A stretch of 50,105 bases of DNA from a virus. Taxonomy: Duplodnaviria; Heunggongvirae; Uroviricota; Caudoviricetes. Below are positions 12,001-15,000 of the stretch, in pieces. Positions within the stretch are counted from its first letter, which is position 1. Every line of letters begins with the position of its first letter. The DNA is taken from the IMG/VR virus record IMGVR_UViG_2630968414_000007; one strand, written 5' to 3'. Position numbers: made by a program.

Positions 12001-15000
12001 TCCAGAATCACCGACGCCAGAAACTGCGAGGTGGTCTTGCCGTTAATGGTGACATCCTTTTCCGTCACCCAGTTACCGTTACGCTGCAACTGAATCAGCA
12101 GTCGGACAGAAGAGGGATTACGGTCGCCCTTTGAGGTGGTCTCCAACAGTGACTGCACCCCGAAGGTAACCCGCAGGCGGTCAATGTTCGCGGATGTAAT
12201 GGTGCGCGTCACCGGCTTTGCCTTCGTCACTTCCACGCCCAGTGCGGTTTCAGCTCCGGAAGACTCAAAGCCTTCAGGTGGTGTCTGCTCCTGCTCCCCG
12301 GCGCGCCAGACCGCTGTCACACCATGTATCACAGGATTACCGTCCGTGTCCGTCAGCGGGGTTTTGTTCACCAGGATACTCTGCAGCCCCTTCACCGGAC
12401 CTTCAATCGGCCCTTCACCAATCGCATCAATCACGCTCATCATCTGCGTGGACTTAAGATTGTCCTTTGCCTCTACCGGCGTGTGCGCCTTGCCGCCACC
12501 TTTACCCACTCTGTCCCCCTCTCCTGTCTGATGTCTGAATCTGTTTATGCCCCAAAAACGACAGGCACCCCGGAGGGTGCCTGTGTCATGACGGAATAAA
12601 ATTTCTGAATTTCTTCACATTTTCTGTACGCCCCCGTGGCAGATATCATTCCCGGGCGTTACAGTTTTTTCGGGCCAATAAAAACAAAACTCCCTGTGGT
12701 TAATCTTCATTTTCTGTTCCCGCAGCCTCCATACACTGCGGGATTTTTTTATGCTTTACCCCTGCCGCCCGATAACCACCACTTTCCCGTCTCCGCCCTC
12801 ATCACGGGTGCTGATGTCCTGGGATATCCGTCGTGAACCAACCAGCATTTCACCATAAGGCACCGGCATCGGGTTCCCCTGGGCAATCATGTTATCCAGT
12901 GACGAAAAATACGTGTTCTGTTTACCGTTATCCGTTGCGCGGTAATCCGGTGTTTTTGCCTTCGGTGCCAGCATCTGGGCCACACCGCCCAGTATCATGC
13001 TGGCACCCAGTGAAAACAGCATCGTGGTGGCAGAAAAACCACCGGCTGCCAGGGCTGAACCCCATAACGCCATCGATGCCCCGGCCGTGAAGAACGACCC
13101 CACGATGGCCGCCGCCCCCAGCACAATCTGCAGTCCGCCCTTTCCGGCTCCGGCCAGTCGCGGCACAATATGGATGACCGCCCCCTCACCCAGAGGTTCG
13201 TGAAGACGGGCGTACACCGCCTCCGGTGCCGTGTCCTCACCGCGAATACGTATCTGGTACCAGCCTTCGTTCATCTGACGGCGGAATCCCGGCACCTGTA
13301 ACGACAGCGCCCGGATGGCTTCCGCTGCCGTGTTCACATACAGGCTGAGGCGGCGGCCAAATCGTTGTAAATCCCCGTGAAGGCAGATGCGTGCCAGTGG
13401 CGGTGACGCCAGACAGAATGCGTTCGTCGTTGCCATTTTTCGGAATACCTCTCCCGTTTACTCAGTTGTTCAGGCAGATGGTGAAGCAGTTCACCGTTGC
13501 CGCAGTATATGGCGGCATGATTGGCCACCGATGCGCCAAAGCAGCACAGCAGGATATCGCCAGGCTGTGCGGAAGGCAGGGAAATCCTGTAAAAACCAGT
13601 CGCCTCCATATTGTCCAGGTACAGGTTCTGACCATTGCGCCACCAGTCATCCTCACGCTCAAAATCCGGCATATCAGTCCCCGCCAGATGATAAGCATCC
13701 CGGAACAGCGTGTAACAGTCCGTCACCCCGTGCTCAAAGCGCCGTCCTGTCAGATGTGGCACACAGCGGAATTTATGAATTTCCCCCCGGCAGACCAGCC
13801 ACCAGGACAGTGCACTTTTTATCTGCAGCCGCCGGTCGGCCTCGCTCAGCCAGGGCAGGCCACCGGGATGGCTGTGGACCAGTGCCACAATCTCCCCCTG
13901 CATCTCTGCCCGCAGCCAGTCTTCCGGTGCAATACGAAAATACGCCTCCGGCTCTGCGGAAATATTCACACAAGGGATATACCACTCCCCCTCCGGCGTG
14001 CTTATCACGAAGCCGCACGACTCCGCAGGCGCACACCGCCGGGCATGCGCCAGAATCGCTGATTCAGTCTGTGTCATAAACCGGGATTTACTGCGAAAGT
14101 TTATTAATGGAAAGGAAACCGCCAAAATTAGCCACCATGCCGCGCATCTCACACCCGCGCATGCACTTGCTGCATCTGTCCTTACGGATATCCGTGGTGG
14201 GGTTGTCGAACTCATCCGCCACCGCAGGACCGTGATAACCGCATTCATCTCCCCGGTAATCCCACATACAGGTGTTCGCCAGCATGATGCGACCGGGAAA
14301 CAGCGCTCCGTCCGTCTCCGTCGGTGTTGCCAGCACAAACGAGGCTGTCATGGCCGTCAGCTCTGACATCTGCTCCACCACCCAGCGGTCTCTCAGCTCC
14401 TGCTCCGGGTCCGCTTCCGGATTGCCCGCCACAAAATTCACCGCATCCAGAAAACGGGCATACACCCGGCGGCGGACCACCGTGGCCCCCACCAGGCTCT
14501 GCAGGTCCTCCGCCATTCCGGTGACCAGACCGAACAGATTCGACACCGTCAGCGACGGGCGGGCACTGCTGCCCTTCCCGTTCATCTCAAAGCCACTGCC
14601 GTCAATCGGGTATACCTGATATTGCCGCCCCTGCCAGGTGACCGCCTCCCCTTTTTCATTCAGCTCATTACAGAAAAAATACCGCTCACCGCCCTGCACC
14701 GTCAGGTCAATTTCCCAGAGCACCACCCGCGGTGACTGCTCTGATTTAACCGACTCGTTCAGACTTTCTTCATGAATGTCCTGCATCAGTTCACCACCTG
14801 CTCAATCGTACAGCTGAAATCACTGTACCGGGCGTTATCCGTGACGCTCCACTCCCGGCACACAACCCTCACCGTCCGGTTATGTTTCGGCGGTCGCCAC
14901 AAAAAGGCACGGTAACCACCATGCCAGGATAAAAATTCATCCAGCCAGCGCCGGGTTGACTCATCCGTCACCCGGAACACCGCCTGAAACGTCTTCAGTT

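Follow-up and report, generated by a model that had tools for sequence, protein, structure and literature searches.

An unannotated gap between tail genes I and J of a Shiga-toxin-type prophage probably holds a PasB/EcOnc22-24-family small RNA gene and a sense-strand terminator

We analyzed the gap that separates tail assembly gene I from tail tip gene J in a 50,105-nucleotide (nt) stretch of Caudoviricetes DNA (IMG/VR record IMGVR_UViG_2630968414_000007), hereafter the window, in which the tail genes lie on the minus strand. We consider it likely that this gap is a moron-type cassette of lambdoid prophages of Shiga toxin-producing and enteropathogenic Escherichia coli (STEC and EPEC) that combines two functional units. 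The plus-strand unit, antisense to the tail operon, would encode an Hfq-dependent, trans-acting, base-pairing small RNA (sRNA) of about 80 nt that belongs to the family of PasB of EPEC and EcOnc22, EcOnc23 and EcOnc24 (EcOnc22-24) of E. coli O157 Sakai. The minus-strand unit would be an intrinsic terminator between I and J. We document here the anatomy, homology, position and conservation of this cassette (Table 1). A first-pass annotation had described it as a 247-bp insert at 12510-12755 between genes that are adjacent in lambda. The coordinates were right, but the length is 246 bp, and in lambda the two genes are close without abutting: their spacer measures 60 bp, which leaves about 190 bp extra in the window gap. 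The same annotation described a non-coding gap with hairpins on both strands, and this is what the sequence holds, each hairpin being 1 bp longer than had been counted.

The plus-strand unit has a characterized counterpart in EPEC E2348/69. PasB is an 83-nt sRNA of prophage PP6, encoded on the minus strand of NC_011601 at 1466343..1466261 (Pearl Mizrahi et al., PMC8550237, table S6). In NC_011601, both tail genes lie on the plus strand, the tail assembly gene I ending at 1466255 and gpJ starting at 1466496. These coordinates therefore place PasB inside the I-J gap in antisense orientation to the tail genes, its 3' end (1466261) lying 6 nt from the I stop codon. The window sRNA occupies the same slot in the same antisense orientation, and its 3' end likewise lies beside the I stop codon. 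The E2348/69 and window gaps are 85% identical over their whole length, with both hairpins in register, and the Northern probe used for PasB (AATCCCGCAGTGATCGCGGAGCT; PMC8550237) covers the hairpin that is homologous to the plus-strand terminator of the window. PasB and the window sRNA share the arms and U7 tail of the terminator, as well as the core AACUCC...AUCUUCAU and an A-A-N tract, whereas the 5' portion of about 30 nt and the terminator loop are unlike, and the window is without the strong TTCACA-N16-TATAAT promoter. A Northern blot bore out the size of PasB, whose stability was found to depend on Hfq, with DESeq2 log2 fold changes of -6.8 and -2.4 in the hfq deletion strain; it took part in 37 interactions identified by RIL-seq, in which interacting RNAs are ligated and sequenced, and its level was higher under the non-activating condition (PMC8550237).

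Further counterparts come from O157 Sakai. EcOnc22 (prophage Sp15), EcOnc23 (Sp14) and EcOnc24 (Sp11) are homologous plus-strand peaks found by cross-linking to Hfq (Hfq-CRAC), with RNAs of about 85 nt on Northern blots that are destabilised in the hfq deletion strain (Tree et al., 2014; PMC4104026, Table S2). On NC_002695.2, all three fall inside I-J gaps with minus-strand tail genes. The published coordinates are those of NC_002695.1, and NC_002695.2 is 128 bp longer. We calibrated this shift on features of known position: Rfam places AgvB at 1941920-1941981 in version.2, against an EcOnc01a peak at 1941783-1941835 in version.1; EcOnc04 falls inside the STnc100 match of Sp11 only with +128; and EcOnc42 takes the position of its Sp4 homologue EcOnc21 relative to STnc100 only with +128. 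The calibration points flank the EcOnc22-24 locus on both sides. The shifted EcOnc22-24 peaks lie over the body of the PasB homologue, whereas the unshifted ones lie over the antisense of the J-proximal hairpin, and we rejected this face-value placement after the calibration of about +128 bp. We infer that EcOnc22-24 are PasB-family RNAs. They would share with the window sRNA the antisense position inside the I-J gap, the terminator and the core; the Sakai type differs in its 5' end and is 74% identical to the window allele. We found no published target or function for EcOnc22-24. Two other RNAs of that list were considered as I-J sRNAs and rejected, EcOnc33 because it lies by the esterase and lysis region and EcOnc54 because it lies in an L-K moron. 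As an observation of its own, the NC_002695 coordinates in Table S2 of PMC4104026 run about 128 bp below NC_002695.2 from at least 1.94 Mb onward, and EcOnc coordinates mapped directly onto the newer version fall on the wrong feature.

Expression, size and Hfq dependence are shown in the literature for these two sister alleles, and the window RNA is a third, unnamed allele of a published sRNA family, which makes it essentially already known. What is modestly new is the link between PasB and EcOnc22-24, the size and multi-allelic nature of the family, and a common allele without a name.

The window sRNA carries the anatomy expected of this family. Its terminator hairpin reads, in DNA, TCCCGCAG-N10-CTGCGGGA (12718-12725/12736-12743), followed by T7 at 12744-12750; the hairpin and its T7 run had been noted correctly, but with a stem of 7 bp where there are 8 pairs. 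The T-run ends 5 nt before the I stop codon. Our terminator scan missed this hairpin solely through its loop limit of 8, and it detected the homologues of this hairpin in E2348/69 and Sakai; in 900 bp of the window, the scan returned 3 terminator-like sites, against 0.8 expected by chance. In its sequence, the RNA has the trait of Hfq class II-like, AgvB-type sRNAs, namely an A-R-N repeat (AAUAAAAACAAA) together with a U7 tail; the significance of the A-R-N motif for Hfq is taken from Tree et al. (2014; PMC4104026). The core, AACUCC-N6-UUAAUCUUCAU, is unpaired in the predicted fold and is a candidate seed or anti-Shine-Dalgarno region.

We compared this anatomy across alleles drawn from IMG/VR, where 120 loci were fetched by a 25-nt pattern and 80 were anchored on the gpI protein, the latter set being unbiased by gap sequence. 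The pooled loci yielded 82 unique sRNA alleles, of which 26 representatives were compared in detail. The terminator arms are essentially invariant among these representatives, while the loop varies in sequence and length. The core, written across alleles as AACUCC-N-UUAAUCUUC(A/G)U, is near-invariant, and an A-rich A-A-N tract is always present, differing in sequence from allele to allele and keeping its A-rich character. For the 5' 20-30 nt, there are several types that are unrelated to one another. With 28 loci, the window allele ranks second in the sample. In one divergent group, which we call type D (loci L007, L032, L040, L093 and L051), the 5' arm of the sRNA terminator is replaced, giving CUCCCG...CGGGAG in place of CCCGCAG...CUGCGGG; the 5' half is different and the tail is GCGUUUUUU. 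The hairpin is here rebuilt from other sequence, which lends the structure indirect support.

The 5' end of the window sRNA is less certain. The E2348/69 allele has a promoter on the PasB strand, TTCACA-N16-TATAAT (11/12 matches), from which transcription would begin some 15 nt before the annotated PasB 5' end. A more proximal TANNNT, at 12660-12665 in the window, is retained in all alleles and fits the annotated PasB 5' end. The window offers two alternative -10 boxes, TACAGT at the proximal position and TATCAT aligned with the E2348/69 TATAAT, so its 5' end may lie near 12672 or near 12656.

The family resembles AgvB and AsxR of enterohaemorrhagic E. coli (EHEC; Tree et al., 2014; RF02702/RF02703), which are also short Hfq-binding sRNAs of lambdoid prophages; they too combine a conserved terminator with a variable 5' domain that bears A-R-N motifs, and they occur in multiple copies or alleles per genome. 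Unlike the window RNA, AgvB and AsxR are encoded near the lysis and stx region and not in the tail operon, and the window gap has no Rfam match. We therefore rejected the identification of the window RNA with AgvB or AsxR, since those RNAs lie elsewhere and do not match. AgvB and AsxR are anti-sRNAs (sponges), an activity that PasB-family RNAs are not known to share.

To see how widely the cassette occurs, we searched for it in complete genomes and phage records. The window gap was matched in 786 of 5,426 complete E. coli genomes, with 4 places per genome at the median and 11 at most, and in 147 phage records (104 near full length), almost all of them Stx1- or Stx2-converting phages, plus BP-4795 and its relatives. 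Among the genomes with a 100% match are those of O157:H7 PV15-279 and FRIK944. None of the matches listed, in phage records or in E. coli genomes, had an annotation under it. We regard the cassette as real because of this conservation, more than because of fold statistics. When the sRNA core and terminator pattern was searched in one genome per bacterial species, it was found in Escherichia albertii only, plus a few contaminant-like short contigs. These contigs (L209, L210, L212 and L213; 460-8,265 bp) are labelled Parendozoicomonas haliclonae, Streptomyces flavalbus and two Clostridia metagenome-assembled genomes, and most likely represent E. coli prophage contamination or mis-binning.

The first-pass annotation had proposed comparing the I-J junctions of related prophages. 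Among the usable gpI-anchored junctions, which come from close gpI relatives, every one (79/79) has a gap of at least 234 bp and carries the sRNA module, and wherever gap sequences of this set were inspected the sRNA terminator came first, next to I. The remainder of the gap differs between classes. In the first (about 234-260 bp), to which the window belongs, the sRNA is joined by the sense terminator. In the second (about 340 bp; L134, L136, L192 and others), it is joined by another hairpin, AAACCCCGGTATC-TGCT-GATACCGGGGTTT, which has T-tracts on each strand, and some 100 bp of uncharacterised DNA precede J. In the third (851 bp; L127, L133, L144 and others), it is joined by an antisense Cu/Zn superoxide dismutase gene, sodC (PF00080, E = 3.9e-32), which has its own terminator and lies upstream of the PasB-like sRNA on the same strand. 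Of the two suggestions made earlier for the gap, a small RNA locus holds good, with the T7 hairpin as the terminator of a PasB/EcOnc22-24 homologue, whereas a relic of an inserted element does not fit a conserved and widespread cassette. A recent survey of Pas RNAs by blastn, with a word size of 28 and more than 75% query coverage, described PasB as mostly single-copy (Zhu, Shabalina & Storz, 2026; bioRxiv 10.64898/2026.05.13.724894). The window allele would not be counted as PasB by that survey because the longest word it shares with PasB is 17 nt, and the word size probably explains the difference between a mostly single-copy PasB there and a multi-copy cassette here.

We read the hairpin on the minus strand as an intrinsic terminator of the tail-gene strand, and its biological role would follow from that reading. 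In DNA it runs ACAGGCACCC-TCCG-GGGTGCCTGT at 12584..12561, followed by CGTTTTTGGGG, with the RNA 3' arm GGGUGCCUGU; the terminator scan found it and the repeat finder confirmed it. It has 10 pairs where 9 had been counted, while the hairpin itself and its U5 run had been described correctly. The scan finds it in the window, in E2348/69 and in Sakai. The fold of the minus-strand 93-mer is stronger than that of its shuffled versions (z = -3.1; 0/200 better). Across 13 distinct hairpin versions, 98.5% of cells are paired, and one compensatory pair (C-G to U-A in 4 alleles) occurs, for which both single-step intermediates exist. Seven G-U cells can pair on the tail-gene strand alone, being A-C mismatches on the other, and the U-tract after this J-proximal hairpin exists on the minus strand only. 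The 340-bp class has a different hairpin with a U-tract at the same place. Lambda itself has a hairpin in its 60-bp spacer (L206; NC_001416 15445-15504), which on the sense strand reads GAAACCGCC-UGCG-GGCGGUUU then UGUCAUUU in RNA. Written as DNA, this lambda hairpin is GAAACCGCC-TGCG-GGCGGTTT then TGTCATTT, and it has no sequence similarity to the window hairpin. Homology between the lambda spacer and the J-proximal half of the gap was rejected, as 114/500 shuffles scored at least as high in local alignment.

The same features could also outline the 3' end of a second sRNA, made on the tail-gene strand from the J-proximal half of the gap (~12625-12551) alongside PasB; its source would be either a divergent promoter or the processed 3' end of the I mRNA. 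Such an RNA would be in keeping with the A/U-rich stretch, the strong hairpin and U5, as well as with the fold z-score of -3.1, the G-U pattern that favours the minus strand and the conservation of the A/T-rich block. However, the scan found no promoter-like site on the minus strand, no EPEC RIL-seq chimeras are named for the pasB-J intergenic region among the entries listed, and for the Sakai I-J gaps the list of Tree et al. (PMC4104026) has no EcOnc peak on the minus (tail-sense) strand. A plain terminator accounts for the same features, and we consider a second sRNA unlikely.

Several observations weigh against the proposal of an expressed PasB-family sRNA accompanied by a functional sense terminator. 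The window sRNA shares 75% identity with PasB and 74% with the Sakai EcOnc22 type, with a longest uninterrupted identity of 17 nt, and the assignment of EcOnc22-24 to the family rests on the coordinate shift; Pearl Mizrahi et al. (PMC8550237) do not list an EHEC homologue of PasB. Expression of the window allele would follow from that of its sister alleles, and a scan of the window gap returned no consensus sigma-70 promoter, as opposed to the 11/12 match in E2348/69. The Sakai allele likewise has no consensus promoter match in the scan, yet it was detected as RNA. The fold of the plus-strand 82-mer is unexceptional against shuffles (z = -1.2), and there is no covariation in the sRNA terminator, its stem never varying in the 26 alleles. 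Rfam gave no match in 12200-13100 at E<0.1, the best being anti-hemB (18.5 bits; cutoff 49.5); with E up to 1 allowed for the gap, and at gathering score for the window, nothing fell in the gap, and the homologous E2348/69 and Sakai loci gave no match either. As for the terminator, the 851-bp sodC class is without the window-type sense terminator, which is therefore dispensable.

Some of these observations would also suit a remnant without function that an old insertion left behind, or two terminators set back to back as insulators: no consensus promoter is found for the window allele, its sRNA fold is unexceptional, and an 8-nt direct repeat (GGGTAAAG) flanks the gap like an insertion scar. 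Homologous alleles are nonetheless expressed, Hfq-bound and Hfq-stabilised in two pathotypes, and the sRNA module is present in 79/79 gpI-anchored junctions, even where the rest of the gap has been swapped. A conserved core and conserved terminator arms next to a variable 5' end and loop are unlike decaying sequence, and we judge a relic or mere insulator very improbable.

The gap had also been said to hold no open reading frame (ORF). Small ORFs do exist, two on the minus strand (31 and 34 aa) and one of 66 aa on the plus strand, but none is conserved among the gap alleles, and the conserved small protein gene that the first-pass annotation had named as the finding that would overturn its view did not appear in any comparison of alleles. 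The best case is a tail-strand ORF that starts at 12710 (ATGAAGATTAAC; 31 aa, MKIN...), lies below ORF-calling cutoffs, has a G-rich stretch 9-13 nt upstream, and in many alleles keeps ATG-AAG-ATT-AAC and the N-terminus MKIN-x-x-E-L/F-F. That such a protein is made seems to us extremely improbable: predicted lengths run from 10 to 54 aa, frameshifts set in after about 9 codons, ACG stands for ATG in about 7 of some 40 listed peptide variants, an entry without ATG (AAAGATTA) represents 3 alleles with the start deleted, the N-terminus is conserved because it overlaps the conserved sRNA core, of whose sequence the conserved nucleotides are the complement, and the upstream G's are part of the terminator stem.

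We propose that the PasB-family sRNA and the sense terminator of the window work as follows, on the model of the sister alleles. By homology, the sRNA would be transcribed from its own promoter in the lysogen, be stabilised by Hfq, and pair with host and accessory-genome mRNAs. The different 5' region of the window allele probably changes its target set. The expression and targets of this allele and the role of the sense terminator are inferred. The terminator may block polymerase that is unmodified by Q from entering J in the lysogen. In lytic growth of lambda, Q-modified polymerase is established to read through terminators, and Q-antiterminated late transcription would likewise pass into J. 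The arrangement resembles that of phage morons, which are promoter-gene-terminator units between late genes: there is extra DNA where lambda has 60 bp, the unit has its own terminator, the sister alleles are expressed in the lysogen, and the same slot carries sodC in the 851-bp class. It differs from them in that the window cargo is a non-coding RNA directed against the operon, with an accompanying sense-strand terminator.

By itself, this finding changes little, in that it assigns the unannotated 246-bp gap of a Shiga-toxin-type prophage to a published sRNA class. More broadly, two literatures appear to have named the same gene separately, as EcOnc22-24 (2014) and as PasB (2021), and the family is much larger and more multi-copy than was visible to the 2026 survey with 28-nt words. 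Its alleles differ chiefly in the 5' part, where target specificity may lie, and strains with several alleles may carry several distinct regulators. For annotation, an I-J gap of at least 234 bp in these prophages can be taken to hold an antisense sRNA gene, often with a sense terminator or a sodC moron. A bolder idea, which we hold to be quite unlikely, is that PasB, EcOnc22-24 and the window RNA form one hyper-allelic cassette (up to 11 copies per genome and at least 4 seed types) whose RNA pool acts as an antisense brake on J of neighbouring or superinfecting phages. Each copy would be perfectly complementary to the I-J intercistronic RNA of its own late transcript and, via the conserved core, near-complementary to the I-J RNA of co-resident or incoming lambdoid phages. 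The duplex energy of the window sRNA with its own J leader was no better than with shuffled leaders. If the idea were true, it would mean competition between prophages in polylysogens, with this conflict driving the diversification of seeds.

Table 1. Features of the I-J gap and flanking tail genes in the window
Feature	Position	Strand	Remarks
I-J intergenic cassette, 246 bp	12510-12755	.	insertion relative to the 60-bp spacer of lambda
Predicted PasB/EcOnc22-family Hfq-dependent sRNA, ~80 nt	~12671-12752	plus	5' end by homology to the annotated PasB 5' end
Candidate sRNA promoter region	12636-12665	plus	two alternative -10 boxes
Candidate promoter, option 1: GTGGCA-N18-TACAGT	12636-12641 and 12660-12665	plus	start near 12672
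Candidate promoter, option 2: -10 TATCAT	12644-12649	plus	aligned with E2348/69 TATAAT; poor -35; start near 12656
A-A-N/A-R-N tract AAUAAAAACAAA	12677-12688	plus	sRNA 5' half; Hfq distal-face type motif
Conserved core AACUCC-N6-UUAAUCUUCAU	12688-12710	plus	near-invariant columns in the 26-allele alignment
sRNA intrinsic terminator: stem UCCCGCAG/CUGCGGGA, 10-nt loop, U7	12718-12750	plus	arms invariant, loop variable in 26 alleles
A/T-rich conserved block GTCATGACGGAATAAAATTTCTGAATTTCTTCACATTTTC (plus)	12585-12624	.	upstream of the sRNA promoter
Predicted intrinsic terminator, tail-gene strand: 10-bp stem, loop UCCG, then CGUUUUUGGGG	12551-12584	minus	40 nt upstream of the J start
Heptamer TGTCTGA x2 (plus; TCAGACA in J sense)	12525-12538	.	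between the sense terminator and the J ribosome-binding site
J translation start	12507-12524	minus	Shine-Dalgarno-like GGAGAGGGGGA 12514-12524 and GTG 12507-12509
Gene J (tail tip / host specificity; 1278 aa)	8673-12509	minus	GTG start 12507-12509
Gene I (tail assembly; 226-aa ORF)	12756-13436	minus	stop codon 12756-12758
K-like ORF, upstream of I		minus	
Gene L	14088-14786	minus	
Gene M	14786-15127	minus	
Gene H	15120-18362	minus	

Smaller features of the gap also vary or recur. The TGTCTGA heptamer differs in copy number between alleles, with 3 copies in L012, L070 and L071 and 4 in L015, L057 and L073. The A/T-rich block is kept in the gpI-anchored sample even where the J-proximal part of the gap is replaced, while its conservation among pattern-fetched loci is biased by the search pattern; a role as UP-element or as regulatory site is a guess. 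Both borders of the gap (12500-12507 and 12754-12761) carry an 8-nt direct repeat, CTTTACCC (in the sense direction, GGGTAAAG), which spans the J start and the I stop codon; about 16/20 surrounding positions match too, and the repeat is weaker in the E2348/69 allele. Such a repeat would be in keeping with an ancestral I-stop/J-start overlap (GTGGGTAA) that received the cassette together with a short duplication. The repeat finder detected no terminal inverted repeats of a transposable element in the gap, just the two hairpins and short chance-level repeats.

Elsewhere in the window, gene J contains an exact tandem duplication of 357 bp x 2.0 (10279-10998, minus strand; 100% match), which is in frame and repeats 119 aa. 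The closest phages align here in two pieces over about 4,541 record bases for a query of 4,901 bases and appear to be without the second copy. The duplication may be either a real variant of J or an artefact of assembly. Finally, Rfam matches at gathering score lie at 3777-3893, 34701-34873, 35650-35896, 38812-38986 and 45832-45883. The families concerned are the ALIL pseudoknot (an IS3-type frameshift element), STnc100, three tRNA genes, the sok antitoxin RNA and DicF, and this repertoire is typical of an STEC lambdoid prophage.

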